Assembly: GCA_025340205.1 (NCBI GenBank)
Contig: CP006868.1
Location: 360,001 to 392,000, forward strand
Direction: 5' to 3'
Length of the DNA stretch: 32,000 nucleotides
From: Ignicoccus pacificus DSM 13166
GTDB taxonomy: Archaea > Thermoproteota > Thermoprotei_A > Sulfolobales > Ignicoccaceae
Shown here: piece by piece, positions 5,528 to 29,511 of the stretch
Layout: every line of letters starts with the position of its first letter
Numbering within the stretch: position 1 is the stretch's first letter
Notes under the pieces: model-generated
The model's database searches: none
What the model was told of the DNA's origin: nothing
The model's input: the letters and a program-made list of their open reading frames with translations, nothing else
Translations under genes and position numbers: made by a program

Positions 5528-6924
5528 GCGAACCTCCACTCCGTTTCCTTGCCCTTGTCCAGCAGCCTAACTCCCAACTCTGCTAGCCTGGACCTTATCA
5601 TGTCAGCTAGGTCCCATAACTTTCTGTTCCTCAGCTCCTTCCTTACTTCAACCAGGAGCTCCACGAACGGCTCCACGTCGGCCTTGCTCTCCTCCACGAA
5701 GACCTCGAATACCCTATCCGCTTCTTCGATCGCTCCGAGGACCGCTAGGGACGCCTCATAGCTCTCCTTCTCCAAGGCCTCGTTCCCTAGCTTCATCATC
5801 TCGCTGACGCTTGCCAAAGCCTTAGGAGTGTTGAAGTCGTAGCTCATAGCTTCATGGAAGGAATTCCTTAGATCTATAGCCTTGTTTATGGCCTCTATCT
5901 CCCACTCGCTGAGCCTCCCCTTAGGACTTCCTTTCTCCACCAACCTTCTAAGGGCGGATACGGTCATCCTCATCCTCTCCAATGATGTCTTGGTCCTTTC
6001 TAAGGCCTCCCAGTCGAAGTTAAGCTCAGTTCTGTAGTGGGCGCTCAATAGCCAAAGCCTTACCACCTTTGGGTCGTACTTTGCCAAGACGTCTTTTAAG
6101 GCAATTATGTTTCCCAAGCTCTTACTCATCTTCTCTCCCTTGATGGTAAGGTAGCCAGTGTGGAGCCAGTACCTGACCCAAGGATGAACTCCGAACCTGG
6201 CCTCGCTCTGAGCGATTTCATTCTCATGATGGGGGAAGATGAGGTCCCTAGCTCCCCCGTGGATGTCGAACTGTTTGCCCAAGTACTTTGAGCTCATTGT
6301 GGAGCACTCTATGTGCCAGCCCGGCCTTCCCTTACACCAAGGGCTTTCCCACCAGGGCTCACCCGGCTTAGCGCACTTCCACAGAGCGAAGTCGTAGGGG
6401 TTCTTCTTGTCCTTTACGAAGGTCTCTTGATTCCACATCTTCTTGTCCTTAATTCCGGAGAGCTGCCCGTAGTAGGGGTACTTGTCGACGTCGAAGTAAA
6501 CGCCGGAGGGAGCAACGTAAGCGTAGCCCTTCTTTATTAGATCATCGATGAATTCAATTATTTCCGGAATGTGCTCGGTGACCCTAGGGTTTATGTTAGC
6601 CCTTATGCCGAGCTTGCCCATGAGCTCGAAGTATTCCTTTGAATAGGTCTCGACTATCTCTCTCCAGTCAACCCCAAGCTCGTTTGCCTTGTTTATGATC
6701 TTATCATCGATGTCAGTTATGTTTTGAACGTGAAGGACTTGGTATCCCCTGAGCATGAGGTACTTCTTTATTCCGTCGAAGGCGACGTAAGTCCTAGCAT
6801 GACCTATGTGAGAGTGGTCATAAACCGTGGGTCCACAGACGTACATCTTAACTAAGCCGGGAGTTAGGGTTTCCAGCTTCTCATACTTCCTTGTTAGAGT
6901 ATTGTAGACCACTATGTCCTTCAA
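5524..6924 (-). CDS. cysS: cysteinyl-tRNA synthetase
   Basis: CGPTVYDHSHIGHARTY (HIGH motif), KMSKSLGN (KMSKS motif), WHIECS zinc/Cys site, 466 aa. Confidence 0.95.
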   Translation of the reverse strand: MKDIVVYNTLTRKYEKLETLTPGLVKMYVCGPTVYDHSHIGHARTYVAFDGIKKYLMLRGYQVLHVQNITDIDDKIINKANELGVDWREIVETYSKEYFELMGKLGIRANINPRVTEHIPEIIEFIDDLIKKGYAYVAPSGVYFDVDKYPYYGQLSGIKDKKMWNQETFVKDKKNPYDFALWKCAKPGEPWWESPWCKGRPGWHIECSTMSSKYLGKQFDIHGGARDLIFPHHENEIAQSEARFGVHPWVRYWLHTGYLTIKGEKMSKSLGNIIALKDVLAKYDPKVVRLWLLSAHYRTELNFDWEALERTKTSLERMRMTVSALRRLVEKGSPKGRLSEWEIEAINKAIDLRNSFHEAMSYDFNTPKALASVSEMMKLGNEALEKESYEASLAVLGAIEEADRVFEVFVEESKADVEPFVELLVEVRKELRNRKLWDLADMIRSRLAELGVRLLDKGKETEWRFA

Positions 6925-7129
6925 GGGCTCGTTCCCAGGAAGGGATCATGAGATGGAATATAACTGGTCCTCTCTAACCGGAAAGTTTCCTTTAATTATT
7001 CTATTTCCTTCCAAGTCAATCACTTCCATAAATCCCCATCACTACTCTCGTTCCTTATTATTTACACTTCTCCATGAGCACACTTCAGAACATTTATGGT
7101 CTCCTTTCTTTCCTTCACCTTGAGCTCTA

Positions 7130-7390
7130 TTCGATTAGGTAACCTTAAATTTCAATTAGCTTAATGATCAAGCAATTCTTTCCATTGTCACATACATGGA
7201 AACGCCGATGATAATGAACTCATTCGTTTGACTATTAGTTTCAGTTAGGTAATTCTAATTGATGGAAGTAGAGCAAAACTGTTCTCATGAAAGCTTAAGT
7301 ATTCAGAGTTAATGAAGCAAGTAAATCAAGGCAATGGGAAAGGAATGACTTATTAGTGAAAGGAAGGGCTAGTTAAATAGGAGGGGCTGG
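7130..7390 (+). promoter_or_regulatory. CRISPR leader (AT-rich)
   Basis: About 260 nt of AT-rich non-coding DNA directly upstream of repeat 1. Contains the direct repeat TTAGGTAAyyyTAAaTT at 7135 and 7245. Confidence 0.5.
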
Positions 7391-8627: not shown

Positions 8628-8930
8628 GCAAGCTTAAAATCTAACCATTCGTTGATGCTCATAACATAATCCTCTACGAACTCGTTAATTTCCTTGACGT
8701 ATATTCTAATTCCCTTCATTGCCTCATATCTTAAGCTCGGCGGAGATCTATCATAGATTGAGATGTCAACCTTTTTCTTGAGCAAATTTTCAAGCTCAGC
8801 TATGAGCGTTCCGATTTCGTATACCCTTAGCCTTCTACCAAATTTAATCAGATCCACATCGCTTAAGGCGCGCAGGCCTTCCAAGCCTATCAGCGTTTTT
8901 CTTGAAATACTCGCTTAGCATCTCGACCAT
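8561..8930 (-). pseudogene. minimal nucleotidyltransferase (MNT) that appears degenerate (N-terminal frame break, GS motif missing)
   Basis: ORF 8561-8884 keeps SDVDLIKF and KKVDISIY (NT fold C-terminal half). The expected upstream LFGSxARG is absent. A separate frame starting at ATG 8930 encodes MVEMLSEYFKKNADRLG, a typical MNT N-terminus, and then terminates. Confidence 0.5.
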
Positions 8931-9009
8931 TTCTCTAAGTTTGTTCAAAGTAGAGTACCATGAGGATTTTCAAAGAAGATCCTTTTAATGCGAAAAGCAT
9001 TATTGAAGA

Positions 9010-12106: not shown

Positions 12107-15100
12107 TTGAATGCCTTTTCCCTTAGGAGTAGCGTTAGGAGATTTCATGGAACTGTTCGCGTTCCAGAACGCGACACTGCTCCGCGCCTCAAAAGCGACG
12201 GTTTCGCACCCTCTGTGGGGTCAATGGTGCTGAACGGAAGGTTTAGAAAAGGAGGGATCGCAAACGTACTCTCTCTGGCGGTGCTCATAGTCATACTTAC
12301 TGTAGCGATAGTGCTGCTCATGAACGCCTTAGCTCAACAGAACACCATACTGCAGAGGCAGACTCAAAAGGCCTCTCAGTCAGCGGTAGTCCAAGCGATC
12401 CTGGCGAAGATAGGCGGGTGTGCTGCCAAGGTCTACGACACCTACCAAGGCCAATGGGCAGTAGTCGTCAAGTCGGATGACATCGCCTCGTTCTGCAGGT
12501 ACGTCCAAGCGGTCCAAGTCATAGGAGAGGAGAACGGGGTCAAGTATGCTTACCTAATCAAGAAGGTAGGCAATCAGTGGGTCATAACTTCCCCCGCCGG
12601 AGCTCCCAGCGTGCCGACGGTCTATCCCCTCCAGTGTGGAACTCCCGTTAACATAACCTACAGCCTAGACGGCTCTAGCAAGCCTATTGGAACCATAGAG
12701 GCCGTCATGGAGATCCTGCCTATAGATGAGAACTTCAAGGTTGATAGCGTACAGATACTGATCCAGGGAAGCGGCTGGAAGAACTTGGGCAGCTGCTTCC
12801 TAGCCCAAGGGGGAGGGGTGGTGCAGCAGACCACCATTCAGCAGACCGTCTACAGCATCGGACCAATAACGGTACTAGCAAGCGCCAACTTCAACCCGCT
12901 CAGCTACATCTGCCCTCCAGCTAAGACCGTGGTTGGAGATGAGGACGCTTACACGATAGCAATAGTTCTCAACCCTCAGATGAACGGCAAGAGGAACTAC
13001 GTACCTACAAGCTATCTAATAGACCTCAAGAGCATAATAGAGAAGGCCGCTCCACCGAGCTCCCCTCTAAAGGTCAATGAGAACGACGTGTTCATAAGGA
13101 ACATAACTGTCATAGGGCTAAGGACCATGCCGGGCCTAGGACCTACCAGCTTCGCCACCACCGGCTACTTGCCTTGGAGCTTCACCGCCCTGAACTACAC
13201 CTCCAAGATTCCGGTGTATCAGAGTGACGGAGTGCTGACCTTCAACATGACAGCAGATGCTCCAATGAGTCCCTCAAGCCCTGTTCAGTACAGCGCGGTC
13301 GTCTGTCTGTACCTAGGAATTAAGGGCCAGGTGCCAGCTGACGCCACTGGAGTGCTGGGAGACGTCAACAACGACGGTATTACCGACTGGAAGAAGATAA
13401 ACGTGCCGACGATAAACAGCACTCAGTTCCCGTGCTTCTCACCGATGGGCTACGATGTCTGCTACATACCGGCCACCTTTGGGCACTACAACACTACCAT
13501 TACTGATGCTTATAACGTAACCTTCGCTTACCTGCAGAAGCCCGTCGACAGCACCGTAAGGGTGCCGAAGATAATAATCGATAACCCCAACCCCAAGAGC
13601 TTATACTACTACGTGGTGAGAGTGGAGCTACCGGACAAGCTGAAGGATAAGCCGATAACCATAACTGACATGACGGGAGCCAAGATACCCTTCTGCTACG
13701 AGACCGCCGTTGGGTACTGTACTACTGACTACAAGCAAGGAGACGGCTACGTCTGGGTCAACGTGCCCTACATACCCGCCGGCTCAAGCGTGAGCCTACA
13801 GATACTTGAAGGTGAGAACGGAGCAACCGATCCGCACAGAGTGTTCCCGGTGTACATAAACTTCATGAAGTACAACGTGACTCAAGGAAACGAGACCATA
13901 ATATATGAGCCAGCAATAAACGTGACCGGCTACAAGTACCTGTGGTACTTCCCTGGAAACGCTTGGACATTAGCGGCTGCAGCAGTAGAGGATCCCAACC
14001 ACGTAACCAACTTCGTCTACAATGATCAGAACTTCACCATAGTCACCGACTTCAGGTGGGACGCTGCCCCCAACAACGCGGATAACGACCAAGTTGATTA
14101 CTACTACCAATACAGAACTAGGATATACTACAACTTCTTCCCAATAGCGTATAGCGCCGACCCTAATACAGGCGACGCATGGTTGTTGGGGCTCTACGAG
14201 GGATTGCCATTCTTGGTAATATGGGTGCAAGGAACCCCCTATAAATTCACCGCTCCAGAGGCAGTCATACCCGGAATCAAGTACAGGGTAGTAGCTACTG
14301 TCAAGTTCGTGAATGGAGTACCTCAAGGCACCGTCAGCGTTTACCCGCTCGAACAGGAGAGGGGAGAGAGGCCGCCGATAACCCAAGTGAACTTACCGCA
14401 GTACTGGAACTCTCTTATTGCCAGCTACTATGCTGACAATGTCTTCGCGATCTCTGGAGCCGACTACGGATACAACGTTACTGGAGGAGGCTTTGGATGG
14501 GGTGGCGGAACCACGAGAACTTACTACCTATTCAGCTTCTCCGGAATGATATACAATGTGACGCTGTTCTCCGGCTACATGGACCCACTGCAAGCAATAA
14601 ACTGCTACACCAACTACAACGCTACCATCTGTCCGCCCAGAGTGGCCTACATTATGCCGCCAACTGCCGACTCCTTACCAATAAACCTGAACGGAACGAT
14701 ACTGAACTCCACGATATTCACTCTACAACCAGGTTCGACAGCAACGACGCCCTTCTACGTCCAAACTTACAGCGCGCCGCCGTACCCGTTAGGAGCGGAG
14801 GTAGACTTCTACTTCTTCACGAATAAGACCGTAATAACCAACGGAACAGCGAAGAGCTACTTGATAGATCCGGTAGCCGCTGTCATGTACGGAACACCTA
14901 TGGACAACTTAGGGAACACTTCAAGGGTGATCGACCTAGCAAAGGTCGTGCAGACGTTGCCACACGCCTTCAACCTAACCGGAGATGGAGGATTTGTGCT
15001 CAACAGCACTTGGCTGGGAACGGGTAACAGCTGGAACATAATGCTGCAACCACAAGTACCAAAGGGAACGTACTACGAAGTCAGAAGTGCACTTAATGGA

Positions 15101-16261
15101 GGAAGCTACGGAGAGTACTACAGTACCAACCAGTCTTGGAATGTGATATACTCCTTCGTACCGTCTGTAGTAGCCGACGACTACAGCTGGCTGAAGTGGA
15201 TGCTCTATGAGGGCAGCGACTTAAGCGGAGTTACCACCAACAACTACAGGATATCATTCGTAAGGGACAGCCCCAACTACGATGCTTGGAGAATCTACTT
15301 CTATAGCTTCGGAACTACAATAGCATTCCACTTGACCAACCCGAAGAAGCTCTACTACGTAGTCGCCAAGTACGATCTGAGCAGACCGATGGCTACGTTC
15401 AAAATAAACGAGGGAGGAGCGATTGGAACGCTGTTCTACTACGCTATTGCCGACTTGAGTCAGAGCAACCTAGCGATCTACTACCAGCAGCTTAGACCTC
15501 AAGACGTGAAGTACATAGGAATGAGCTTCCTTGACAGGGACACCGCAGAGACCGTGAACTGGCTCAACCAGACCTTCGGATATCCCAGCGACACTAGAGT
15601 CTACTACTTCATGTTCGTAAGGCCCGTGGCAGAGGTGGAGCCGACAGTAACCATAGAGATGCCAGAGCTGGAGTCCCCGCTCGTAGACCTGCCAATTGTC
15701 TACTGGGTGGGCCACAGCTACTTCACCAACTTAACTAACATAACCCTCGCTCCAGCGAACGTGACCTATCATCTGCTAGGAGAGGACGTGGAGCTCGAGC
15801 CCAGCGTCTACGGAGTCCTAGCAAACCAGACGGTAGGAGCCTTCAGCAACGTGAGCAGCTTCGAGCAGATAAAGGCGGTCGCTCCAATATGGTCAGCCAG
15901 CAGCTACAACCTAACTATGGCCAACTACACACTACCGATAAGTATAGCCAGCAACTGGACGCTCTACGACTGGAATGGAACCGGCGTGGACTTCCAAGCG
16001 CTGCTAGACCCGTGGGGCGACTTCGTGTTCAACTTCAGGAACCTAACGCTGCCGGAGTACTACGTAATAGGACTCAGCAACCCCAACAGCACCATAGCGA
16101 CCTCTCTGATAATAGCTGGAAAGGACGTGAACGGAACGGTAGCGGGTCTGCTGAACGCTGACGACCTCCTAAGCACCGCTCTGAACGACACTGCGATAAT
16201 AGGAATAGACAAGCTGAACTGGTACGTGACGATAAGCGGACCCTACTGTATCAAGTGCTAA
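12107..16261 (+). CDS. giant secreted/surface glycoprotein with a type IV pilin-like (class III) signal peptide and a possible DUF2341/LamG-like region
   Basis: 1384-aa ORF. The likely start is ATG 12224: MVLNGRFRKGG/IANVLSLAVLIVILTVAIVLL, a basic segment then G then a hydrophobic helix, as in archaeal prepilins. About three dozen N-x-S/T sequons by hand count. Rich in Y, N, T and W. The segment YYVVRVELP..ITITDMTGAKIPFCYE..GDGYVWVNVPYIPAGSSVSLQI resembles DUF2341. Contains one dockerin/EF-like loop, GDVNNDGITDW. Confidence 0.85.
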   Translation: MNAFSLRSSVRRFHGTVRVPERDTAPRLKSDGFAPSVGSMVLNGRFRKGGIANVLSLAVLIVILTVAIVLLMNALAQQNTILQRQTQKASQSAVVQAILAKIGGCAAKVYDTYQGQWAVVVKSDDIASFCRYVQAVQVIGEENGVKYAYLIKKVGNQWVITSPAGAPSVPTVYPLQCGTPVNITYSLDGSSKPIGTIEAVMEILPIDENFKVDSVQILIQGSGWKNLGSCFLAQGGGVVQQTTIQQTVYSIGPITVLASANFNPLSYICPPAKTVVGDEDAYTIAIVLNPQMNGKRNYVPTSYLIDLKSIIEKAAPPSSPLKVNENDVFIRNITVIGLRTMPGLGPTSFATTGYLPWSFTALNYTSKIPVYQSDGVLTFNMTADAPMSPSSPVQYSAVVCLYLGIKGQVPADATGVLGDVNNDGITDWKKINVPTINSTQFPCFSPMGYDVCYIPATFGHYNTTITDAYNVTFAYLQKPVDSTVRVPKIIIDNPNPKSLYYYVVRVELPDKLKDKPITITDMTGAKIPFCYETAVGYCTTDYKQGDGYVWVNVPYIPAGSSVSLQILEGENGATDPHRVFPVYINFMKYNVTQGNETIIYEPAINVTGYKYLWYFPGNAWTLAAAAVEDPNHVTNFVYNDQNFTIVTDFRWDAAPNNADNDQVDYYYQYRTRIYYNFFPIAYSADPNTGDAWLLGLYEGLPFLVIWVQGTPYKFTAPEAVIPGIKYRVVATVKFVNGVPQGTVSVYPLEQERGERPPITQVNLPQYWNSLIASYYADNVFAISGADYGYNVTGGGFGWGGGTTRTYYLFSFSGMIYNVTLFSGYMDPLQAINCYTNYNATICPPRVAYIMPPTADSLPINLNGTILNSTIFTLQPGSTATTPFYVQTYSAPPYPLGAEVDFYFFTNKTVITNGTAKSYLIDPVAAVMYGTPMDNLGNTSRVIDLAKVVQTLPHAFNLTGDGGFVLNSTWLGTGNSWNIMLQPQVPKGTYYEVRSALNGGSYGEYYSTNQSWNVIYSFVPSVVADDYSWLKWMLYEGSDLSGVTTNNYRISFVRDSPNYDAWRIYFYSFGTTIAFHLTNPKKLYYVVAKYDLSRPMATFKINEGGAIGTLFYYAIADLSQSNLAIYYQQLRPQDVKYIGMSFLDRDTAETVNWLNQTFGYPSDTRVYYFMFVRPVAEVEPTVTIEMPELESPLVDLPIVYWVGHSYFTNLTNITLAPANVTYHLLGEDVELEPSVYGVLANQTVGAFSNVSSFEQIKAVAPIWSASSYNLTMANYTLPISIASNWTLYDWNGTGVDFQALLDPWGDFVFNFRNLTLPEYYVIGLSNPNSTIATSLIIAGKDVNGTVAGLLNADDLLSTALNDTAIIGIDKLNWYVTISGPYCIKC
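12157..12174. promoter_or_regulatory. perfect palindrome TCGCGTTC-CA-GAACGCGA in the divergent MFS / giant-protein intergenic region
   Basis: 8+2+8 dyad read directly. It lies about 50 nt upstream of the probable ATG at 12224. Confidence 0.3.
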
Positions 16262-16326: not shown

Positions 16327-17685
16327 TTGGTCTTCGGGAGCAAGGGATCCCTATCCTACTCAGAAGCTAGAGATGCTATAGCTAAGTGGTTGCTCCTAGG
16401 AAACGTGGAGCCTTGTAGAGCACCCCCGATCTTCGTTTACTCAGAGCCGGGGTTCTCCATAAACCATCTCATAGCTGATGCCTTCAAGACTGCAATGAGT
16501 ACGGTGAAGGGTACCTACGAGGAGAAGGTACCGGAGGACTTGAAGGCCTTCGTAACTGCCTTAGAGAGGATAGACAACCTAGGGATACTTCACACTTTGA
16601 CTAAATACGACGACGTTAAGGTTTTGTTTAATACAAAGGAGAAAGGTGAGGGATTAGTAATCTATACCGTAACGCCGGAGTACTTGAAGAAGGAGGGGTT
16701 GGATGGAATAGTTGAGGCGTTGAGCAGAGCGGACTTCGCGGTCCTCCACGTTTACAACGCTCTCGATGGAATAGATGAGGAGGTCAAGAGGATGTATGAG
16801 GCTATGGTACAAGGACTCTGGAGCAAGCTCAACAAGCCGATAATCTTCAGCCAGCAGCTAGTACCGGGAGTCAGCAAGAGGGCGTTAAGCTTAGGGTTCG
16901 GAACCGGAGGAATTGCGATAATGAAGGTGGAGCTTCCGAACGTGGAGGAGTGGGCCTCTTGGGTTTCGAGAACCTTCAAGGTTAAGGCTGATAGGGACGT
17001 GATCGAATTCGTTAAGGTAATATCCCCTGAGACGTTACCCTTACCCTTCGCTGAACTTCTAAGGGAGATAAACGAGAGGGCTTACGGAGTTGGAGATCCC
17101 TTCAGCGGAAAGGAGCTCTTCGTCGTCGAGAGGGAGGGAATAAGGATAGAGGCGACGCCGGTGCTGGGTTCTCCCATGGAATCCCTTCCCAGCCCCGACG
17201 GCTGGACCAAGGTGGCTTTGCTTCCGTGGAACTATCACAAGCTCGCTAGAGAACTAGCAATTGCGGTGCTGGGCAGCACGAAGTTGGTAGATGGCTTGGA
17301 GCTGTACAAGAGGAAAGCTAAGATGGCTCCGAAGATTATCAAGGATTTAGAGGACTCAGTCAGTAGCGGGAGAAGCGAGGGAGCGATAGAGGATTTAGTT
17401 CAACTCATAAATGATCTAGAGGAGCATGGAGGAGACGAGGTGGCCTCTGCTATACTCATCAGAGCATTAGCGAGCCTCTACAAGTACGCCGAGAAGTTCG
17501 AGAGCTGGGAGACTTGCGATGAGGAGTGTAGGGCGCTCAAGATAATGTGCGAGCTTCACTCAAGACTCAAGGAGATACAAGCACCACTTCTCAGAAAAAT
17601 CGTAGAAGAAATAAATATTCTCGTTGTAGAGTTAACTGGAGCGGAGGCAGGGAAGGCATGCGCAAAGTTGAAACTTCTAATATAG
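16327..17685 (+). CDS. hypothetical protein (452 aa) with a weak resemblance to archaeal ATPase (PF01637-like) lacking a P-loop
   Basis: Long ORF with coding-like composition. Its layout recalls Arch_ATPase (AVLHVYNALDGIDEE like a Walker B; IAIMKVELPNVEEWASWVSRTF like the GR..i.L.pl..ee motif). The Walker A position reads YSEPGFSIN, with no GK[ST]. Confidence 0.55.
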   Translation: MVFGSKGSLSYSEARDAIAKWLLLGNVEPCRAPPIFVYSEPGFSINHLIADAFKTAMSTVKGTYEEKVPEDLKAFVTALERIDNLGILHTLTKYDDVKVLFNTKEKGEGLVIYTVTPEYLKKEGLDGIVEALSRADFAVLHVYNALDGIDEEVKRMYEAMVQGLWSKLNKPIIFSQQLVPGVSKRALSLGFGTGGIAIMKVELPNVEEWASWVSRTFKVKADRDVIEFVKVISPETLPLPFAELLREINERAYGVGDPFSGKELFVVEREGIRIEATPVLGSPMESLPSPDGWTKVALLPWNYHKLARELAIAVLGSTKLVDGLELYKRKAKMAPKIIKDLEDSVSSGRSEGAIEDLVQLINDLEEHGGDEVASAILIRALASLYKYAEKFESWETCDEECRALKIMCELHSRLKEIQAPLLRKIVEEINILVVELTGAEAGKACAKLKLLI

Positions 17686-19366: not shown

Positions 19367-19440
19367 GGCCCCGTAGCTCAGCTAGGAAGAGCGCTGGCCT
19401 TCGGAGCCAGTGGTCCCGGGTTCAAGTCCCGGCGGGGCCG
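19367..19440 (+). tRNA. tRNA-Arg (anticodon TCG)
   Basis: Hand-folded cloverleaf: acceptor GGCCCCG/CGGGGCC, D stem GCTC/GAGC, anticodon stem CTGGC/GCCAG with loop CT-TCG-GA, T arm CCGGG-TTCAAGT-CCCGG, discriminator G. CCA is not encoded. Confidence 0.9.
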
Positions 19441-19652
19441 CTATTCATTCCAACATCTCCTGTGTAAATTCGGGAATCCGAGCGCCTACTGCTCTCCTAT
19501 TGCCTCCTCTCATTTACACCACAAAGGTCTAGAGCCTTACTCTTGCAGCATCTCTTTATCTAAATTCTCCGCAACTGGTACTTGAAGTAAAGGATACTTT
19601 CGTCCTCCCCTCTTCCCTTTTAATCCTCCATCTACACTATTGGTAGGATAAC

Positions 19653-20202: not shown

Positions 20203-20949
20203 ATGAGCAAGCTAGAGGCGTTGCTTAAACGAATAGAAGAATACTACGAGGAGTTCGTTCAAGCGAAGAGGGAATGGGAAGAAGGGAAGGAGAGGATTTA
20301 CGCAGTCGAAAGGTTGGCCCAGCTCCTAGCTCAGTCCCTCCTCGACTTCTCCGCGATCTTAGCCTCAAGACTCCCTGGAAGGAAGCCGGAGAGTTACAAG
20401 GAATTGGCTGAGTTCTTGGCTTCCAAAATAGGTCATAAGGAGTTCTTGGTCGGCCTTGCTGGGTTTAGAAACGTATTGGTTCATATGTACATCGAACTGG
20501 ATGAGGAGCTAGAGAGGGAGAGCTTCGATGAAATAGAGGAGGAAATGCCCAAAATACTCAAGGCACTGAGGGAATTGGCTAAGGGCGACCCTTGCTTGAG
20601 TGAGGTGAAAAGAGAAATAGCAGAACTAGCTTCCAAGTGGAACCTAAGGTATGTGGCCTTAATAGGTTCTTTAGCTAGGGAAGGATGTGGGAACGACGTG
20701 GATCTAGTCGTGAAATTTGGGAGGATGCCCAAGGGACTGGAGCTTGGGAGGTTTGTGGCAGAAGCTGAAGATGCGCTGGGAAGTAAGGTAGACGTGATAG
20801 TGGTTGACTTGAAGCTGGACCCAATAATGGCAAAGACGATAGTTGATGAAGGGGTGTTGATCTTCGGTAGTGAGGAGGAGTTTGAGGAGGACAAGCTCGT
20901 GTTATATAAGAAGTTCTTAGATGAGAAGAGGCTCGTATTAAATCCATAA
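20203..20949 (+). CDS. fused HEPN (DUF86) - nucleotidyltransferase protein
   Basis: The N-terminal half has GFRNVLVHMYIELD (R-x4-H). The C-terminal half has LIGSLAREGCGNDVDLVV and SKVDVIVVD (GS...DxD minimal NT). All in one 248-aa ORF. Confidence 0.8.
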   Translation: MSKLEALLKRIEEYYEEFVQAKREWEEGKERIYAVERLAQLLAQSLLDFSAILASRLPGRKPESYKELAEFLASKIGHKEFLVGLAGFRNVLVHMYIELDEELERESFDEIEEEMPKILKALRELAKGDPCLSEVKREIAELASKWNLRYVALIGSLAREGCGNDVDLVVKFGRMPKGLELGRFVAEAEDALGSKVDVIVVDLKLDPIMAKTIVDEGVLIFGSEEEFEEDKLVLYKKFLDEKRLVLNP

Positions 20950-22560: not shown

Positions 22561-23472
22561 TTAGGGGAGAGGGAACTGGACTGAGGCGTAGCCAACTACT
22601 TGGCTGTAATCGCCGCTGGTGTCCCCGCTGGTCGCGTGCTTGAGAAGTATTCCTCTATTCCCTCCGTACTTCTTCGTGAGCTCCATTACGGTCATAGTAG
22701 GGCCGGGGCCACACATGCTTATGTCATACTCAAGCAAGGCCTTGTAGAGGCCCTCCGTATCCAAGGCAGTTATTTTCTCTATGGCTATCATATCCTTCTT
22801 CACAGTTACCTCGTGGGGCTCGTAATGGTTTAGGTCGCTGGAAGCTAGAACCACGTAGTCCTTGCCCAGCTTCTCCATGGCCCTGTAGATGCCATCTGCC
22901 AAAGCCTTAGCGGCTTCCGGAGTCTGGAGGCCCATGACAATGGGAACTATCCTGAACTTGTTTCCGAAGAGGTACTGGAGGAAGGGAACTTGGACCTCCA
23001 AGCTGTGCTCGTAAGCGTGGGCGCTTGCATCCACGTCCACTATCCCGCTCTCCCTAACTATCTCCTCCACCGCCTCCGGATCCACGTGTACGTGTCCCAG
23101 AGGAGTCTCCCAGATGCTGGGAGGCATTATGGAAATGGGGCTTCCAACTCCGGTGTGGTTGGGGCCTATGATGATTACCACCTCTGGAGCCCCCTCTTGG
23201 GCCAGCTTGTAGTAGGCCCAAGCCGCTACTGGACCGGAGTAGATGTAGCCGGCGTGAGGAACCATGAAGCCCACGCTCTGCTTGTTCCTCTCCTCGCTAA
23301 CCTTTGGTAGCTCCCCGGGCCCTATCGGATGGGTGAAGCTCCATTCTATCAGCTTGATGAGCTCTTCTGGATCGGCTGGGTAGAAGGTTCCAGCCACCGC
23401 TGGGGGTCTCACTAACACGTTCTCTACCGCTCTCAACATTTCAAGGAGTGAATATGAATGGGGGCCTCCCAA
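22561..23472 (-). CDS. MEMO1-family protein (AmmeMemoRadiSam system protein B-like)
   Basis: RPPAVAGTFYPADPEEL is the hallmark N-terminus. GPNHTG and HSLEVQVPFLQ motifs are present. The probable true start is ATG 23439 (MLRAVENV...). Confidence 0.85.
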   Translation of the reverse strand: MGGPHSYSLLEMLRAVENVLVRPPAVAGTFYPADPEELIKLIEWSFTHPIGPGELPKVSEERNKQSVGFMVPHAGYIYSGPVAAWAYYKLAQEGAPEVVIIIGPNHTGVGSPISIMPPSIWETPLGHVHVDPEAVEEIVRESGIVDVDASAHAYEHSLEVQVPFLQYLFGNKFRIVPIVMGLQTPEAAKALADGIYRAMEKLGKDYVVLASSDLNHYEPHEVTVKKDMIAIEKITALDTEGLYKALLEYDISMCGPGPTMTVMELTKKYGGNRGILLKHATSGDTSGDYSQVVGYASVQFPLP

Positions 23473-23687
23473 TGAGAGTACTATATTTTAAGTGCAAGAA
23501 ATACAGAAGTAACTGGGAATATAGAGTGTCCTTAGCAGAACAAATAGAGACTATTTTAGAGAACCTTACTGAAGAAGAGCCTTCAGATGAGGAGATACAG
23601 ATTATTGAAGATTATGAAAAAAGGGTAAAGATGGGAAAGGTAGATCTCCGTCCTCTCGATGAGCTCTTAAAGAAGCTCAGATGTTGA
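23448..23687 (+). CDS. small acidic protein, possibly an antitoxin-like addiction-module component
   Basis: The C-terminal pattern EEPSDEEIQIIEDYEKRVKMGKVDLRPLDELLKKL resembles antitoxins partnered with RelE/ParE. A GGAG sequence lies 5-6 nt before ATG 23454. AT-rich. Confidence 0.4.
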   Translation: MNMNGGLPMRVLYFKCKKYRSNWEYRVSLAEQIETILENLTEEEPSDEEIQIIEDYEKRVKMGKVDLRPLDELLKKLRC

Positions 23688-23693
23688 AGTTGA

Positions 23694-24008
23694 TTATTTC
23701 TTCTTGTACGCGTTCTTACGAGGTCCGATATGAGTAATTACGAATACCTTTTCGTCTTTGCAATACTTGACTATTATCCTACACTTTCCAGCTCTTATTC
23801 GGTAGTAGTTTACTTGACCTTGAAGTTTTACTATATCAACGCTTTTGGGCCCTTTCTTACAGAGGAGCAGTAAGGTTTCTTTTATCTTCTTACAATCATC
23901 CTTACTTATGTGCTTCAGATCCTTTGACAACGCTTTATTATCATAGAGTATAGGTATTATGCAATCGTTGAGGTCCGCATCACTTAGATCACAACGCTTA
24001 GATCTCAT
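23694..24008 (-). CDS. RelE/ParE-family toxin
   Basis: The C-terminal core VKLQGQVNYYRIRAGKCRIIVKYCKDEKVFVITHIGPRKNAYKK matches the kL.g....yRiRvGdYRiiY...d....v..i.hR...Y pattern. Confidence 0.75.
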   Translation of the reverse strand: MRSKRCDLSDADLNDCIIPILYDNKALSKDLKHISKDDCKKIKETLLLLCKKGPKSVDIVKLQGQVNYYRIRAGKCRIIVKYCKDEKVFVITHIGPRKNAYKKK

Positions 24009-24079
24009 CGTTCATCACAAGGGGTGCCGATGTTGGGATTCGCGAGGACTTGAGAAGACACGACACCCCTTACACCCAT
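24005..24079 (-). CDS. 24-codon ORF translationally coupled (ATGA overlap) to the RelE-like gene
   Basis: GAGGAGGTG precedes the ATG. Reads MGVRGVVSSQVLANPNIGTPCDER. Too short for a normal antitoxin, so it may be a remnant or non-coding. Confidence 0.2.
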   Translation of the reverse strand: MGVRGVVSSQVLANPNIGTPCDER

Positions 24080-24237
24080 CACCTCCTCAAGACTGTAATA
24101 CGTTCCTTTCCCTATAAAACCTTATTCACTGAGACACATGAGTGAATTTGTAAGTTATTGCTTCTATAAAAGCTATTGTATTGCGTTCTCCGGTATTCAC
24201 GCTGAACCTCTAATGCTTTCCTACCCTTGTGATCCTC

Positions 24238-25146
24238 TTAAGTGTTTGCTGAAGGTACGGCAGAGAACACGTGACCGCTCCAAAGACCCATGAGGAGTTC
24301 ATTCCCTTCCCATCTTAGATCAGCGATTTTACTCTTAAAAGAAACCTTCCACTTGGGAATGCTTCTTTTATTTACGCTGATAACCTTGATCCATCTCCCA
24401 TTGATCGACGCTGCAGCCAATTTATCGCAAAACGGCCTATTGAATGAAACCAAGTAGGAACCTTCCTCCTTTAGATTTCCGACCCATAAAAGGCTGGGGT
24501 TTGAGGATCCATTCAGTAAATATAGACGTAAGTGACCCTTAGAGGAGAGGGTTGCTAACTTGTCTTTGCAGACATCGAAACTATGCTCGTAGGGTGAAAG
24601 GTTGAAGGTACTGACTATTTCTCCATTGTGTATGTTGATTATGTACATCAATCCTTGTCTAACTGGTAAGACGTACAAAAAGTCGCCTATCCTTTGGGGG
24701 AATGCTTTGATTTCCCCAAAGCCTCTACTCCAGAGCCTTTTCCCTTCCCAATTATGAGCTACTATTTGTCTTGGTGCTAGGCTTACAATAGCATCTTTAT
24801 AAAGTCTGATATGTCTAATGCTTTGTTGAAGACCTAGAAGAGGGAAGTATTCCCATCTACTTTCTTCGGTATCGAATAAATACAAGACATTTCTATAGCT
24901 CGCAAATCCCAGCTTGCCACAGCACTTGTGAACAGTCCTCATAACTACATCATCTTGCTTATATGAAATTATATCAAGGTCTTGGATTATATAGGCGTAT
25001 CCCCTCCTCGTCGCCACGCCGATGAAGCTTCCCAAACGATCGAGTTCCATTACTCCCGAGGGAAGGCGGAGGAACCAGTTCAAGAGAAGATTCGGAGATT
25101 TATTCTCTACTGGGAGCCTTTTACTCAAGAACGTCACTTCTTTCAA
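24238..25146 (-). CDS. hypothetical all-beta repeat protein (beta-propeller-like)
   Basis: 302 aa with a TTG start. Recurring ~40-aa units end in aromatic/W motifs (LYLFDTEESRW, VAHNWEGKRLW, PSLLWVGNL, IPKWKVSF, IADLRWEG). AT-rich. Confidence 0.5.
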   Translation of the reverse strand: MKEVTFLSKRLPVENKSPNLLLNWFLRLPSGVMELDRLGSFIGVATRRGYAYIIQDLDIISYKQDDVVMRTVHKCCGKLGFASYRNVLYLFDTEESRWEYFPLLGLQQSIRHIRLYKDAIVSLAPRQIVAHNWEGKRLWSRGFGEIKAFPQRIGDFLYVLPVRQGLMYIINIHNGEIVSTFNLSPYEHSFDVCKDKLATLSSKGHLRLYLLNGSSNPSLLWVGNLKEEGSYLVSFNRPFCDKLAAASINGRWIKVISVNKRSIPKWKVSFKSKIADLRWEGNELLMGLWSGHVFSAVPSANT

Positions 25147-25432
25147 TTTCTTTACCTTCAGTATTTGGAGATAATGTAGTAGAATAGGAACTAATCCTCG
25201 CCTTTCCTTTCCTCGTCTCAGCTAAGAGCAAGGACTCAATCCTTATCTCCTCTCCCGCTACAATTATGTCCCTATTCTCAAGGAATTCCACCGTATCCTC
25301 TCTTTCCAGTGCAGAATAGAAGACTGGAAGGACTCTGAAAGCACTTCCTAGGTCCCTTTTTCATGACTCTTCATCTCTTCATAATATGGTGACCTTTTTA
25401 CTTTCCGCTTTCATGAAAAAGACATATTGTAG

Positions 25433-25852
25433 TTGGATTCAAAGAAGCTATCGTGGGCTGAGTTGGTTTTCTTATTAAAGGAAAGAGCTATTGAATTCAT
25501 GAAGTTGGCCGAAGAGGCCTTGAGAGACGGAAGATACGACGTAGCTTGTGCCCTCTTCGAACAAGCATTCCAACTTTACTTGAAGTACATGCTCCTGAGG
25601 TTTTACAGTATAAGGGTGAAGAGCCACGACTTGAGGGAACTTATTGGAATCCTCGCATTGAAGACAGGAAACGAGAGACTAGCCGACTTTGCCAAAAGGA
25701 ATAGGTCTGAGCTAATACTCCTCGAGGAATCCTATTACGTGGGAAGGTATGGAGAGTACGAGTTTGAAGAAGAGGAAGGAAGGGCTTGTGAGAGGGTTAC
25801 GAAAAGAGCCTTCGAACTACTTCACGAGATTGAGCGGTCCCTTGAGGATTAA
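25433..25852 (+). CDS. HEPN domain protein (PF05168-like)
   Basis: AEEALRDGRYDVACALFEQAFQLYLKYML...KSHDLRELI...ESYYVGRY is a typical HEPN four-helix pattern. TTG start. Confidence 0.8.
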   Translation: MDSKKLSWAELVFLLKERAIEFMKLAEEALRDGRYDVACALFEQAFQLYLKYMLLRFYSIRVKSHDLRELIGILALKTGNERLADFAKRNRSELILLEESYYVGRYGEYEFEEEEGRACERVTKRAFELLHEIERSLED

Positions 25853-25853
25853 G

Positions 25854-26213
25854 GTGCTTAAAGAATGGAAAAGGTATCTGCCAACGGTAACCTCAATACT
25901 AAATGACATATTCAAAAACTGCAAGATCTATGTAATAGGAAGTGCTCTGAGGGAGGCGTTCCACGCTAAGAGCGACGTAGATTTGCTGATAATTTGTAGG
26001 GAGAGGCCCATGATGAGGGAAGTTGTCACTGCCTTGATGAAGCTTGAGGACATCGGAATCCCCAAGATCTTCCAACTCCACGTAGGAGATCGTGAAGACT
26101 TAGATAGATATAGGTCCTTAGGAGAGGTAGTTCCCCTAGAGGAGCTTTTACCCCCTGAGGAAAATCTAAAAGGGCGAAACAGTGCCTCCAGTGATAAGGA
26201 AAGTAATGGTTAG
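25854..26213 (+). CDS. minimal nucleotidyltransferase
   Basis: IYVIGSALREAFHAKSDVDLLII (GS...DxD). The GTG at 25854 is 1 nt after the HEPN stop. The track ORF 25749-26213 is in the same frame. Confidence 0.8.
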   Translation: MLKEWKRYLPTVTSILNDIFKNCKIYVIGSALREAFHAKSDVDLLIICRERPMMREVVTALMKLEDIGIPKIFQLHVGDREDLDRYRSLGEVVPLEELLPPEENLKGRNSASSDKESNG

Positions 26214-27270
26214 CGGCTACAAGGCAATTCCTTATGACAAGCCCGTTATCCTTGAACTTGGAGAGAAACTAACGTTGCTGGTGGGACCTAACGCAGCTGG
26301 GAAGAGCGCAGTCCTAGAGGCCTTGTACTACGTTCTAAATGGGAAGAGTTTCCCGGTTGAATATTCCTATAAGAAACTAGGTAGGTACGTGATCCTTTCG
26401 GTAGTCTTTCAACAAAAGGATGAACTGAAAACCCTTCTGTACTTGTACACTGTAACTTCGGGGTCAACATATACGCTCGAAGAAGTAGTAGAGATTAGAG
26501 GTGACGTCCTTGAAAAGATATCCAGCATTACTAAAAAGATTAGCTATGCTAATACGGATGAAGTCATGAACTCCATCTATCAAATTAGTTCCGATGTAGT
26601 ACATACGGGCATAGAACTTATAGATATACAAAGACCACTATACTTTGAAGGAGACCTTATTAAGAGGGAGAAAGTCCTTTCCCTTTTGTTTAAGCAGTAC
26701 GGTTTGATTAGTGAAGGAATAAAGAGGGTTGATGAGTGGGTAAAATTACTCGGATATACGAGATTTAGAACCTTAATCAACGAAAGAGGAGACTTCGTCT
26801 ATGAGTTTTATGATGGCAGAAGTGGAGAATGGATTAGGATAGATGAATGTGCGGGAGGTCTACGGTCTACCGTAGGTCTGATCTATTCGCTTAGCTGTCC
26901 CATTGAGATGATGTTAATCGATGACGTTGAGGTAGGTCTCCACCCCTCGCTCCAAATACGACTTCTTGAGGAGCTCTTGAAATGGCATGGACAAGTAATT
27001 GTGTCATCTCATAGCGAGACAGTGTTCTACTATTTGTTGTATAGAAAAAAGGAGCTAGGCGATAAGATAAAGATAAACTTGATGTACAGAGACGAAGAGG
27101 CAGTGTATGCTGAGGAAATAGGAAGGGAGATTCCGATAAAGCTCAGTAAGAAGGCAGAGAAGGCCTTGAAGGAGTTCGGAGCTTATGGTCTATTTGGAGA
27201 GAGTGGGTTCTACTCCCTAAAGGCCCTCTTAGAGGGAAATGAAAATGAGAAAGATAGTAGTAATAGATAA
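26182..27270 (+). CDS. ABC/SMC-like AAA ATPase (AAA_15/AAA_21-like)
   Basis: Walker A LLVGPNAAGKS, signature-like AGGLRS, Walker B MMLIDDVEVGLHP, SSHS H-loop. The start could be GTG 26182, GTG 26191 or ATG 26206; the last overlaps the NT stop. Confidence 0.85.
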   Translation: MPPVIRKVMVSGYKAIPYDKPVILELGEKLTLLVGPNAAGKSAVLEALYYVLNGKSFPVEYSYKKLGRYVILSVVFQQKDELKTLLYLYTVTSGSTYTLEEVVEIRGDVLEKISSITKKISYANTDEVMNSIYQISSDVVHTGIELIDIQRPLYFEGDLIKREKVLSLLFKQYGLISEGIKRVDEWVKLLGYTRFRTLINERGDFVYEFYDGRSGEWIRIDECAGGLRSTVGLIYSLSCPIEMMLIDDVEVGLHPSLQIRLLEELLKWHGQVIVSSHSETVFYYLLYRKKELGDKIKINLMYRDEEAVYAEEIGREIPIKLSKKAEKALKEFGAYGLFGESGFYSLKALLEGNENEKDSSNR

Positions 27271-27742
27271 GAGTGCTTTCCAAACGGAACCTAGCACTTG
27301 CGTGAAAGACGTAGTCGGAACGACCTTTTGTATACTAAGCCACGCTTCCCTTTGCCACTTCATCATATACATTCCCAAAGAAGCGTTCGAAAAAGAATGG
27401 AAAGACGCTTATAGGGGTTCAAGCATCCTCGATATAATGTCGGGTCTAGCTAAGGCCTACATCTCTGGTGTGCTAAAGGATTGTCAAGAGAGCACAACTA
27501 GTTGTTTACTTGCTAACATTTTCAGAAAGAGGAAGATTGTGCTCCGCAACGTCGGAGGTAATGTAAGGAACTTGAACCTCAAGGATCCCGACTACCTTTA
27601 CGTTGAGCTGGCTCTTCGATTAAAGGGCGAGAGCTCTCACGTATACCTCATAACGTGCGATGGAGATATGGAAAGGGTAGCTAGGCGTGAGGGAATAGTT
27701 GCTCTTGATCCCCAAGAGCTCTGTAACCAGCTCCTTAGGTAA
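27239..27742 (+). CDS. PIN-domain nuclease-like protein
   Basis: KIVVIDKSAF (D10), PKEAFEKE (E48/E51), KDPDYLYVELALRL (D116/D118), YLITCDGDMERVARREGI (D141) follow the spacing of PIN acidic residues. Overlaps the ATPase stop by 32 nt. Confidence 0.6.
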   Translation: MKMRKIVVIDKSAFQTEPSTCVKDVVGTTFCILSHASLCHFIIYIPKEAFEKEWKDAYRGSSILDIMSGLAKAYISGVLKDCQESTTSCLLANIFRKRKIVLRNVGGNVRNLNLKDPDYLYVELALRLKGESSHVYLITCDGDMERVARREGIVALDPQELCNQLLR

Positions 27743-27801
27743 GCGCCCTAAGGGGTCTAGGATTTCAATCTCCCCCTCCCTTCTCCCTCAGGGGTTCACT
27801 A

Positions 27802-29511
27802 GTGGCAAAGTGGGTCGTCGGAAGCGCTTGGCCTTACGTTAATGCAGTACCGCACTTGGGCAACTTGGTAGGCTCGATACTCTCAGCTGACGTATTTGCC
27901 AGGTTCCTAAGGCTAATGGGAGAGGAAGTAGTAGCGGTCTCGGGAAGCGACGAGCACGGCACTCCGGTAGAGGTGGAGGCCCGAAAGAGGGGATTGGAAC
28001 CCAAGGAGCTCACCGACAAGATGCACGCTTACGTGAGCTCCCTCTTTAAGAAGTACTTGATCTCGTTCGATAACTACACCAGAACGCACAACCCTGTTCA
28101 CATAAAGTTCGTTCAAGACTTGTTCATGAAGATATACAACAACGGCTACATCTTCACCCAAGACTTGATATTGCCATACTGTCCAAAGGATAAGATATTC
28201 CTCCCCGATAGGTTCGTGACCGGCACTTGCCCCTACTGCGGCTACAACGGGGCCAGAGGAGATCAATGCGACGCTTGCGGAAAGCTGCTAGATCCTCCGG
28301 ACCTCATAAATCCCAGATGCTCTCTTTGCGGAACCAGGCCCACTTGGAAGAAGACCACCCACTGGTTCTTCGACTTGCCAGAAGCGGCGAAGGGCTTGGA
28401 CGAGTGGGTGAAGGAGAGCGACCTCCCGGACAACGTCAAGAACTTCACCCTGAAGTGGCTCGAGGAAGGACTAACTCCAAGGGCGGTGACTAGGGACAAC
28501 AAATGGGGAATTCCCGCCCCGTTTCCGGGAGCGGAGAACAAGACCATCTACGTGTGGTTCGAAGCCGTGTTGGGATACCTCTCTGCAGTAAAGGAGCTTG
28601 AGGTCAAGGAAAACAGAGAGGGACTCTTCGAGTACTTCTGGAAGGATCTGAACACTAGAACGGTCTACTTCATAGGAAAGGACAACATACCCTTCCACTC
28701 CATAATTCTTCCAGCCCTACTCAAGGCCACCGGGGAGCAATACCCCTTACCCTACCACATCTCCGCTACCGAGTACCTAATGTACGAGGGCAAGAAGTTC
28801 AGCAAGAGCAAGAGGATAGGAGTGTGGATAGATGAGGCATTGAAGCTCCTTCCGGATCCAGATTATTGGAGGTTCGCCCTAATCAGAATGAGGCCGGAGG
28901 ACAGGGACATGAACTTCGTGTGGAAGGAGTTCCACAGAATAATAAACAGTGAGCTGAACGACGACATAGGCAACTTCGCCCATAGGGTCTTAAGCTTCGT
29001 GAAGAGGAGGTTCGGAGGAAAGGTGGAGGGAGAGGTCGATAAGGAGATCAAGGAGAAGGTGGAGGAGCTCCACAAGAAGTTCGTGGAAGCGATGTATGAG
29101 ACCAGGATGAGGGATGCTACCAACTACCTCCTCGAAATGGCTAGACTCGGTAACAAGTACCTCAACGAGAAGGAGCCGTGGAGGATGCTGAAGGAGGGAA
29201 GGGAGGAGGAAGCGAAGAGCGTGATGTACACGTGTATGTACATCTTAAGGGAGATAGCTATGCACATGGCGCCCTTCACGCCCCTAGCAGCACAGAGGCT
29301 TTGGGAGATGTTGGGCGAAGAGGGCTCGGTTCATGAGCACGGAACCTTAGCTAGGGAGCACGGCAAGGATCCGAAGGGAGTGGCAGTAAACCCCAAGCCC
29401 CTCTTCCAGAAGCTCCCGGACGAGTTTGCCGATGAACAAGAAATGGAGAAGAAGATAATGAAGATAAGGGAGGAAGTTGAAAAGGAGAGGCCATTCCCGC
29501 TCTTCTCCTAA
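27802..29511 (+). CDS. metG: methionyl-tRNA synthetase
   Basis: WPYVNAVPHLGNLVGS (HIGH-type motif), CPYCG...CDACG zinc knuckles, KFSKSKR (KMSKS motif), 569 aa, GTG start. Confidence 0.95.
   Translation: MAKWVVGSAWPYVNAVPHLGNLVGSILSADVFARFLRLMGEEVVAVSGSDEHGTPVEVEARKRGLEPKELTDKMHAYVSSLFKKYLISFDNYTRTHNPVHIKFVQDLFMKIYNNGYIFTQDLILPYCPKDKIFLPDRFVTGTCPYCGYNGARGDQCDACGKLLDPPDLINPRCSLCGTRPTWKKTTHWFFDLPEAAKGLDEWVKESDLPDNVKNFTLKWLEEGLTPRAVTRDNKWGIPAPFPGAENKTIYVWFEAVLGYLSAVKELEVKENREGLFEYFWKDLNTRTVYFIGKDNIPFHSIILPALLKATGEQYPLPYHISATEYLMYEGKKFSKSKRIGVWIDEALKLLPDPDYWRFALIRMRPEDRDMNFVWKEFHRIINSELNDDIGNFAHRVLSFVKRRFGGKVEGEVDKEIKEKVEELHKKFVEAMYETRMRDATNYLLEMARLGNKYLNEKEPWRMLKEGREEEAKSVMYTCMYILREIAMHMAPFTPLAAQRLWEMLGEEGSVHEHGTLAREHGKDPKGVAVNPKPLFQKLPDEFADEQEMEKKIMKIREEVEKERPFPLFS

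Follow-up and report, generated by a model that had tools for sequence, protein, structure and literature searches.

Why does the hyperthermophilic crenarchaeon Ignicoccus pacificus DSM 13166 carry a gene for a compact ABC (ATP-binding cassette) ATPase that runs into the gene of a small, probably PIN-like protein, and what might the two products do together? The genes lie in a stretch of 32,000 nucleotides (nt) of contig CP006868.1 (assembly GCA_025340205.1, positions 360,001 to 392,000 of the forward strand), hereafter the window, to which all coordinates refer unless a second locus is named. A first-pass annotation of this DNA had proposed a two-gene defence module, in which a sensor ATPase is paired with a separate PIN nuclease. 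We give a probability of roughly 0.55 to the reading that the pair is a horizontally acquired two-gene conflict module, of the defence or the toxin type, made up of a compact ABC ATPase and a coupled PIN-like nuclease; the role itself is proposed by analogy. The reading is supported because ATPases of the same class regulate separate nucleases in Septu, PARIS and Menshen, because the two genes overlap in both genomes where they are found (by 32 or 26 nt in one and by 4 nt in the other), because the pair sits in a low-GC islet (guanine-cytosine fraction 0.427 against about 0.53) next to a HEPN/MNT toxin-antitoxin pair, and because the ATPase and its partner are the sole sequence that the two loci share. 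The pairing of an ABC ATPase that has no effector domain with a nuclease encoded separately is a familiar theme, and the new part is the free-standing, probably PIN-like partner.

The ATPase gene (IPA_02210) spans 26182..27270 (+) and encodes 362 amino acids (aa) from a GTG start, the GenBank version beginning at 26191 and comprising 359 aa. The second open reading frame, ORF2 (IPA_02215), spans 27239..27742 (+) and encodes 167 aa, or 165 aa from the ATG start at 27245 that is used in GenBank. Both products are labelled 'hypothetical protein' at NCBI. The overlap of 32 nt noted in the first-pass annotation was confirmed (27239..27270 (+); 26 nt with the annotated start), and a GAGG motif is found just 5' of the ATG, which suggests that translation of the two genes is coupled. 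The end of the ATPase encoded within the overlap (GNENEKDSSNR) is not kept in the homologue described below. Since both genes are annotated in the source genome, and the adjacent pair is kept in a second genome at 40% (ATPase) and 39% (ORF2) protein identity, they are real genes and not chance open reading frames.

The second genome was the only other one to be found. When 5.8 billion clustered proteins were searched by a word index, the ATPase retrieved itself and a single homologue of 348 aa (P0003, 40% identity), and ORF2 retrieved only itself; a profile search with ORF2 added just one sequence, a 109-aa C-terminal piece (P0004) called on the same contig as P0003. This 31.9-kb contig, JBPMCD010000014.1 (L001), belongs to the metagenome-assembled genome (MAG) GCA_054016895.1. 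An exhaustive phmmer search with ORF2 against 1.84 billion representatives again returned only the query, and tblastn against plasmid and phage collections found no copies. Scans of genome, metagenome and viral contigs with back-translated patterns revealed no relatives; they missed the source genome as well, which may not be in the collection.

At the second locus the ATPase gene (6001..7047), whose product carries the same Pfam families as IPA_02210, is followed directly by the ORF2 homologue, which starts from a GTG at 7044 with a 4-nt overlap (GTGA) and an upstream GAGG. Past '...SDSFRG', one extra G in a GGGGG run (within about 7200-7210; the G5 at about 7205-7209) causes a +1 frameshift in this homologue, which then runs on to 7512, and the gene caller retained only the 109-aa C-terminal piece. 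Deleting the extra G restores 'FRGSKLVNV...', which matches 'YRGSSILDI...' of ORF2, and the protein repaired in this way is 39% identical to ORF2. Because removal of a single G restores the matching frame, the frameshift is an error of the assembly or else an inactivation of very recent date. In a tblastx comparison of the window with the contig, the ATPase and ORF2 formed the sole shared segment and the flanks were unrelated, the neighbours on the contig being a 283-aa open reading frame without family, the gene of threonyl-tRNA synthetase (ThrRS) and that of an ABC-transporter ATPase. Judged from these alignments, with their unrelated flanks, the pair is a two-gene unit that travels together and would have landed in different places. 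The conserved adjacency that the first-pass annotation had called for is therefore seen in the only other genome having the pair, with the limit that n = 2 genomes and one of the two ORF2 copies is frameshifted.

The ATPase was assigned with more certainty. Among its Pfam matches, AAA_21 (E-value 2.7e-17; 64.2 bits against a gathering score of 27) and AAA_15 (1.8e-14; 54.6 bits against 32.1) lie above the cut-off, and AAA_23 and SMC_N match as well. The scan found ABC/SMC-type ATPase families only and no nuclease or other effector domain, which agrees with the first-pass annotation, and every motif that it had listed is in place. The Walker A motif or P-loop GPNAAGKS (aa 35-42; 26284..26307 (+)) has G35, P36, N37, A38, G40, K41 and S42 invariant between the two homologues. 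It is followed by a degenerate ABC signature, AGGLRS (aa 224-229; 26851..26868 (+)), where G225, G226 and L227 are invariant and the homologue reads PGGLKF; thus only G-G-L is kept, and the canonical Ser is absent from both proteins. The Walker B motif with the D-loop, MMLIDDVEVGLHP (aa 243-255; 26908..26946 (+)), has I246, D247, D248, E250, V251, G252, L253, H254 and P255 invariant, and in the H-loop with the switch histidine, SSHS (aa 275-278; 27004..27015 (+)), H277 and S278 are invariant together with the following E279 and T280. Walker A, Walker B (LIDDVEVGLHP) and the H-loop are thus invariant or nearly so across the two proteins. In both of them, the position after the Walker B Asp is occupied by Asp (D247-D248 in LIDDVE) instead of the usual catalytic Glu.

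Conservation along the ATPase is uneven. The heads and the C-terminal tail are 47-60% identical between the homologues (the tail, taken in blocks of 30 aa, 53-57%), and identity drops to 7-23% in the insert at aa 61-180. The highly conserved tail KALKEFGAYGLFGESGFYSLKALL (aa 327-350; 27160..27231 (+)) is a candidate docking surface for ORF2; this suggestion is made by analogy with Menshen, where the DUF3696 tail of NsnB is predicted to bind the PIN-like domain of NsnC (PMC12065111), and with PtuA and PtuB. A pattern of conserved heads and tail with a divergent insert fits an insert that senses and a tail that docks. By sequence, the nearest solved structures (E-values of 1e-5 to 1e-2) are an unnamed AAA ATPase (9n69) and Septu PtuA (8ee4), and the retron Ec83 and Ec78 ATPases and the SMC/Rad50 heads fall within the same range. 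In PADLOC, IPA_02210 gave 132 matches to ATPase models (AriA, mad3, NsnB, HEC-01A, GajA, PtuA, AbiLi, Old). By its motifs and families, IPA_02210 belongs to the OLD-ABC or AAA_15-AAA_21 class of ABC ATPases and has no effector domain; it shares this class with PtuA, AriA, GajA and NsnB. The logic of a sensor ATPase with a separate nuclease, which the first-pass annotation had invoked, is in keeping with this class.

Is ORF2 then a PIN protein? We consider a PIN-like fold likely, and the assignment of ORF2 (27239..27742 (+), 167 aa) as a single-domain PIN-like metallonuclease nearest to the PIN_5/HARP and PINc subfamilies is probable. The four acidic positions and the terminal T-x-D-x-D that the first-pass annotation had pointed out were all located. 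D10, the proposed first acidic residue (27266..27268 (+); D8 in the 165-aa numbering), ends the N-terminal strand KIVVID; E48, the proposed second (27380..27382 (+)), lies in IYIPKEAFEKEW, a strand followed by a helix, within a block that is 75% identical; D118, the proposed third (27590..27592 (+); D116 in the 165-aa numbering), starts the helix DYLYVELALRL, and its position aligns with VDE of the TTHA0540 PIN domain in the alignment of the second-locus homologue. The proposed fourth acidic residue belongs to a T-x-D motif, T139-C-D141-G-D143 (27653..27667 (+)), after the strand VYLIT, in which T139 and D141 are invariant and D143 is replaced by E in the homologue. The motif is followed by MERVARREGIVAL, a helix and the last strand, and its segment carries all the weak PIN matches. 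D10, E48, D118 and D141, with T139, are invariant although the two proteins are only 39% identical. The order of these elements fits the PIN pattern: a hydrophobic N-terminal strand ending in Asp, a strand-helix with Glu, an Asp at the start of a helix, and a strand-T-x-D-helix-A...G-strand. From this motif pattern and from the weak TTHA0540 and RRP44 alignments, we infer that the four residues occupy the canonical PIN structural positions.

Comparisons with families and structures point in the same direction. The homologue from the second locus matched NF003344/PRK04358 (E 0.0047; 16.3 bits against a cut-off of 241), PF08745 PIN_5 (E 0.061; 13.2 bits against 27) and TIGR03875 (E 0.073; 12.5 bits against 95.3), these PIN_5/HARP-family matches covering only its last ~45 residues. 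It also aligned with the PIN domain of TTHA0540 over 59 residues (E 0.85). A two-sequence ORF2 profile, searched against the PDB, gave only matches with E > 0.1, among them the PIN region of human RRP44 (E 0.47-0.87). AlphaFold 2 models of ORF2 were built from the single sequence (predicted local distance difference test score, pLDDT, 38) and with the 109-aa piece as a second row (pLDDT 44). With the latter model, about 40 of the top 50 Foldseek chains were PIN chains, aligned over about 48 columns with a root-mean-square deviation of 1.4-1.8 Å; they included HARPs, PH0500, Pfu-367848, VapC4, RRP44, SSO1118, Nmd4, SMG6, 3i8o and 3ix7. The former model retrieved unrelated proteins and ribosomal-protein noise. 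UniRef names ORF2 'PIN domain-containing protein', which is the label of the source and not a test.

Several results weigh against a conflict module with a PIN-like nuclease. For ORF2 of the window, Pfam and NCBIfam yielded no PIN-clan match at E ≤ 10, no significant family match was obtained in Pfam, NCBIfam, PADLOC or PHROGs, and a single-sequence search of the PDB returned nothing. None of the PIN matches of the homologue reaches its curated cut-off, the two AlphaFold models are unreliable (pLDDT 38 and 44), and every Foldseek E-value is at least 0.08. ATP turnover may be slow or absent, because Asp takes the place of the catalytic Glu in Walker B and the signature lacks its Ser. The pair is present in two genomes only, ORF2 is frameshifted in one of them, and its neighbours there are housekeeping genes. 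Moreover, the homologue is matched over aa 84-125 by Flu_PA (PF00603), a PD-(D/E)xK enzyme, at E 0.0052. The PIN fold claimed in the first-pass annotation is consequently kept at the strength given above: the acidic residues are conserved and the homologue approaches PIN_5/HARP models with E-values of 0.0047-0.07, with nothing above the cut-offs. The profile searches that it had advised placed the ATPase in AAA_21/AAA_15, with no PIN-clan match for ORF2 of the window, and PADLOC offered no named system that fits.

The Flu_PA match invites a different explanation of ORF2, namely that it is not a PIN protein at all and is either a PD-(D/E)xK nuclease akin to the N-terminal endonuclease of influenza PA or a non-enzymatic, lineage-specific partner, the acidic motif being coincidental. 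PA endonuclease chains also top the PDB profile searches of the ORF2 family (E 0.14-1), and this explanation would account for the lack of a significant PIN model for the window protein. The resemblance to the PA endonuclease is unexpectedly long and locally striking in the window at 27530-27667 (ORF2 aa ~98-143), where ALRLKGESSHVYLITCDGD stands against ASKLKGENVYIHIFSFDGE. However, it spans just one strand-helix-strand unit, and the catalytic positions of PA have not been kept: where PA has D108 and E119, the second-locus copy has E and E and the window copy N and N, and K134 is replaced by Leu in both, while the four PIN positions are invariant. In addition, the N-terminal 'hhhhD' strand and the C-terminal T-x-D...A...G-h are PIN hallmarks, and three PIN_5-family models, RRP44, TTHA0540 and the Foldseek list all point to PIN. 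The PD-(D/E)xK reading was therefore rejected, and because the catalytic residues are not conserved the resemblance is judged to be a shared strand-helix-strand unit or chance; taken as a whole, we regard a non-PIN nature of ORF2 as quite unlikely.

Affinity to the PIN_5/HARP subfamily raises yet another option, a housekeeping or accessory RNA-processing pair in which ORF2 would be a HARP-like (PIN_5) nuclease that processes tRNA, with the ABC ATPase as its cofactor, and neither would have a role in conflict. HARPs are protein-only RNase P enzymes that cleave the 5' leader of pre-tRNA and form homo-dodecamers, and in which an inserted spike-helix domain separates the N-terminal half of the PIN core from the C-terminal one (PMC8266387). 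Of the PIN subfamilies, PIN_5/HARP (PF08745, TIGR03875, PRK04358) scores best with the ORF2 family and is the nearest to it. HARP structures also feature strongly among the Foldseek chains, the sizes are similar (~165-190 aa), and ORF2 may also carry a two-helix insertion between the halves of its PIN core (aa 61-78 and 85-95, in low-confidence models). According to Matelska et al. 2017, genes of tRNA synthetases and of tRNA methyltransferases occur together with PIN_5 genes (PMC5499597). Downstream of ORF2, after 59 nt, lies the methionyl-tRNA synthetase (MetRS) gene (27802-29511 (+)), and at the second locus ThrRS (3170-5083 (-)) and a TRM5/TYW2 methyltransferase (8272-9117 (-)) are encoded near the pair. 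Nevertheless, aminoacyl-tRNA synthetase genes are frequent in a compact genome, and since the cysteinyl-tRNA synthetase gene is also in the window (5524-6924), the position of both copies of the pair beside translation genes is probably a coincidence in compact genomes. HARPs stand alone as homo-dodecamers and have no ABC ATPase partner, whereas the ORF2 family scores far below the cut-offs of their models (12.5 against 95.3 bits and 13.2 against 27) and only over its last ~45 residues, so that on present evidence it is not a member. The distribution of the pair is extremely narrow, being confined to I. pacificus and one MAG contig, its composition is atypical for the host, toxin-antitoxin genes adjoin it, and ORF2 is frameshifted in the second genome. 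A housekeeping role is accordingly very improbable.

The composition just mentioned concerns an islet at 23480-27760, which has a GC fraction of 0.427 against 0.525-0.53 in the flanking genes, and the AT-rich islet seen in the first-pass annotation is thereby borne out. It contains the HEPN/MNT pair, a weak ParE-like open reading frame, a 302-aa open reading frame, and the ATPase with ORF2. The HEPN/MNT toxin-antitoxin pair (25433-26213 (+)) consists of HEPN at 25433-25852 (Pfam HEPN, 4.2e-19) and MNT at 25749-26213 (Polbeta/NTP_transf_2); the MNT frame overlaps the start of the ATPase gene by 23-32 nt, so that HEPN, MNT, ATPase and ORF2 form four head-to-tail genes on the same strand. The ParE-like product of 104 aa (23694-24008 (-)) matches ParE_toxin below the threshold (E 6.7e-4; 20.6 bits against a cut-off of 23). 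The 302-aa frame (24238-25146 (-)) has no Pfam family at E ≤ 1 and is not conserved at the second locus. To describe the islet as full of toxin-type genes, as had been done, was on this content a little generous, yet not incorrect. No meaningful att-like repeats, promoters or terminators were found around the islet. A system of four genes (HEPN, MNT, ATPase and PIN) was considered and rejected: HEPN/MNT is missing from the second locus and is therefore not part of the conserved module.

Some further open reading frames of the window may be recorded here. One of 79 aa (23448-23687 (+)) adjoins the ParE-like frame in convergent orientation, and for that reason is not an obvious antitoxin partner. 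In another low-GC islet, a HepT-like frame (8178-8627; 2e-20) and a Polbeta frame (8561-8884) are found, both on the (-) strand. In a separate low-GC islet, a single frame of 248 aa (20203-20949 (+)) carries HepT-like (9.1e-15) and Polbeta (6e-8) domains, an apparent fusion located about 0.8 kb downstream of tRNA-Arg (19367-19441). Large frames without a Pfam family at E ≤ 1e-5 encode 1384 aa (12107-16261 (+)), 452 aa (16327-17685 (+)), 451 aa (471-1826 (-)) and 371 aa (4412-5527 (+)).

On the reading that we prefer, that of a conflict module, the following mechanism may be proposed. The product of the second gene would be a single-domain PIN-like nuclease dependent on Mg2+ or Mn2+, with a D-E-D-D acidic set. 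The ATPase would assemble as ATP-sandwich dimers or higher oligomers and, in a physical complex formed through its conserved C-terminal tail, would keep the PIN protein inactive. A trigger may be sensed by the insert that separates Walker A from the signature (aa ~60-180) and diverges fast, upon which a change of nucleotide state would release or activate the nuclease; the Asp in place of Glu in Walker B suggests a slow, switch-like ATPase. The nuclease would then cut RNA, leading to arrest of the cell or of the invader. The RNA is plausibly tRNA, because of the affinity to PIN_5/HARP, and this would be in line with PARIS, PrrC and RloC.

Restraint of a separate nuclease by an ABC ATPase, as in Septu, PARIS, Gabija and Menshen, is one of the main themes of prokaryotic immunity. 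PADLOC-DB 2.0 contains no PIN partner that is free-standing and apparently catalytically intact, and none was met in the papers that a literature search brought up; this type of partner appears to be undescribed. If the pair works as proposed, PIN RNases would join the effectors gated by this ATPase class, and the PIN-like adaptor of Menshen NsnC could plausibly be linked to the pair by evolution. It would also represent a very small two-protein system of a hyperthermophile, thermostable, suited to structural work and easy to test. The impact is tempered by the two known genomes, by a role deduced from analogy and by the uncertainty of the fold assignment.

How does the pair compare with the systems that are already named? 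We tested ORF2 and its homologue against the 5027 models of PADLOC-DB 2.0 at E ≤ 10 and obtained zero matches; ORF2 is therefore not PtuB, AriB, AbiLii, NsnC or any listed candidate partner. VapBC, a type II toxin-antitoxin system, is similar in that the gene of a small PIN toxin and the partner gene upstream of it overlap, and in our case they lie within an islet containing other toxin-antitoxin genes. In contrast, the upstream partner in our case is a 362-aa ABC ATPase and not a DNA-binding antitoxin of ~70-90 aa, and ORF2 matches no VapC-type model of Pfam or NCBIfam.

Septu and the retron-associated PtuAB resemble the pair more closely, as they consist of two genes, an ABC ATPase and a separate small nuclease bound through the C-terminal region of the ATPase. 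The solved structures nearest to IPA_02210 include PtuA and retron ATPases, and many PtuA models of PADLOC match. However, neither ORF2 nor its homologue has an HNH match in Pfam or a PtuB match in PADLOC, PtuA is longer than the ATPase by ~100-190 aa, and the similarity is limited to the nucleotide-binding motifs. With PARIS, the pair shares the logic of a sensor ATPase and a released nuclease. AriB cuts tRNA (PMC11464382), and this is the class of substrate suggested for ORF2 by its HARP-like affinity. Unlike AriB, ORF2 is not a Toprim/DUF4435 protein and has no AriB match, and AriA is a protein of 55 kDa, compared with 362 aa for the ATPase. The top PADLOC models named 'AriA' are generic, since their lengths and matched positions equal those of Pfam AAA_21 and AAA_15 (304 and 373 positions). 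Membership in PARIS was rejected on these grounds.

The closest named system is Menshen. It had been overlooked in the first-pass annotation, which recognised no named system pairing so small an ATPase with a PIN protein; that statement holds in so far as ORF2 matches no PADLOC partner. In Menshen, the ABC ATPase NsnB is of the AAA_15 type and carries a DUF3696 helix at its C-terminus, NsnC has an N-terminal PIN-like domain without catalytic residues and a variable effector, and an AlphaFold3 model places the PIN-like domain between two NsnB tails (PMC12065111). A 2026 preprint disputes the inactivity of the PIN domains of NsnC. Menshen and the pair have the same gene order: first a small OLD-ABC ATPase of the AAA_15 type that lacks an effector, and immediately after it a protein whose domain nearest to the ATPase is PIN-like (in our case probably). 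The degenerate signature, with only GG kept, is comparable to the GxG of NsnB, and docking, for which DUF3696 has been proposed in NsnB (PMC12065111), could here be served by the conserved tail of the ATPase. IPA_02210 aligns with the PADLOC model of NsnB at positions 28-320 against 21-319 of 345 (E 3.8e-13), and the homologous ATPase does so at 1.6e-15, with generic models scoring higher. The host, in our case, is a hyperthermophilic crenarchaeon.

These likenesses allow the pair to be read as a degenerate or minimal Menshen-like core, homologous to NsnB-NsnC, in which the PIN-like protein would be mainly an adaptor, or a module that binds RNA, and not a nuclease; the NsnA sensor and the C-terminal effector would have been lost or never present, and the pair might be non-functional in defence. 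Both ATPases do align with the NsnB model in a single stretch across almost its whole length, NsnC does follow NsnB, with its PIN-like N-terminal domain predicted to dock on the C-terminal tails of NsnB (PMC12065111), and the ATPase of the window likewise has a strongly conserved C-terminal tail. Nonetheless, the generic PADLOC models derived from AAA_21 and AAA_15 outscore NsnB, and no NsnA (ParB/DUF262) gene was found near either locus, among the large open reading frames of the window or in the gene list of the second contig. The ATPase has no Pfam DUF3696 at E ≤ 1. ORF2 is a single domain of ~165 aa without a C-terminal BECR, Toprim or PLD effector, while all NsnC proteins are described as an inPIN domain with an effector, and neither ORF2 nor its homologue matches the NsnC model. 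The canonical acidic residues, which according to the published description are missing from the PIN-like domains of NsnC, are kept in ORF2. We thus find it unlikely that the pair is a remnant of this kind. A variant that starts from the same likeness is improbable to a similar degree: the pair may be the minimal ATPase-PIN core that Menshen elaborated, its PIN protein still catalytically competent, so that the ATPase would directly gate a HARP-like, tRNA-cleaving PIN nuclease with no separate sensor. If this were true, the pair would be the first PIN effector controlled by an ABC ATPase and an archaeal counterpart of the tRNA-targeting immunity of PARIS, PrrC and RloC, and the 'inactive' PIN adaptor of NsnC would descend from an active effector. 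Because no NsnA gene and no DUF3696 match were found, and because ORF2 has no effector domain and keeps its acidic residues, the pair is a relative of Menshen in logic and not a member. By analogy, the ATPase and ORF2 of I. pacificus should be described as a pair that presumably works like NsnB-NsnC, PtuA-PtuB or AriA-AriB and is a member of none of these systems, with a free-standing PIN-like protein as its own probable partner.

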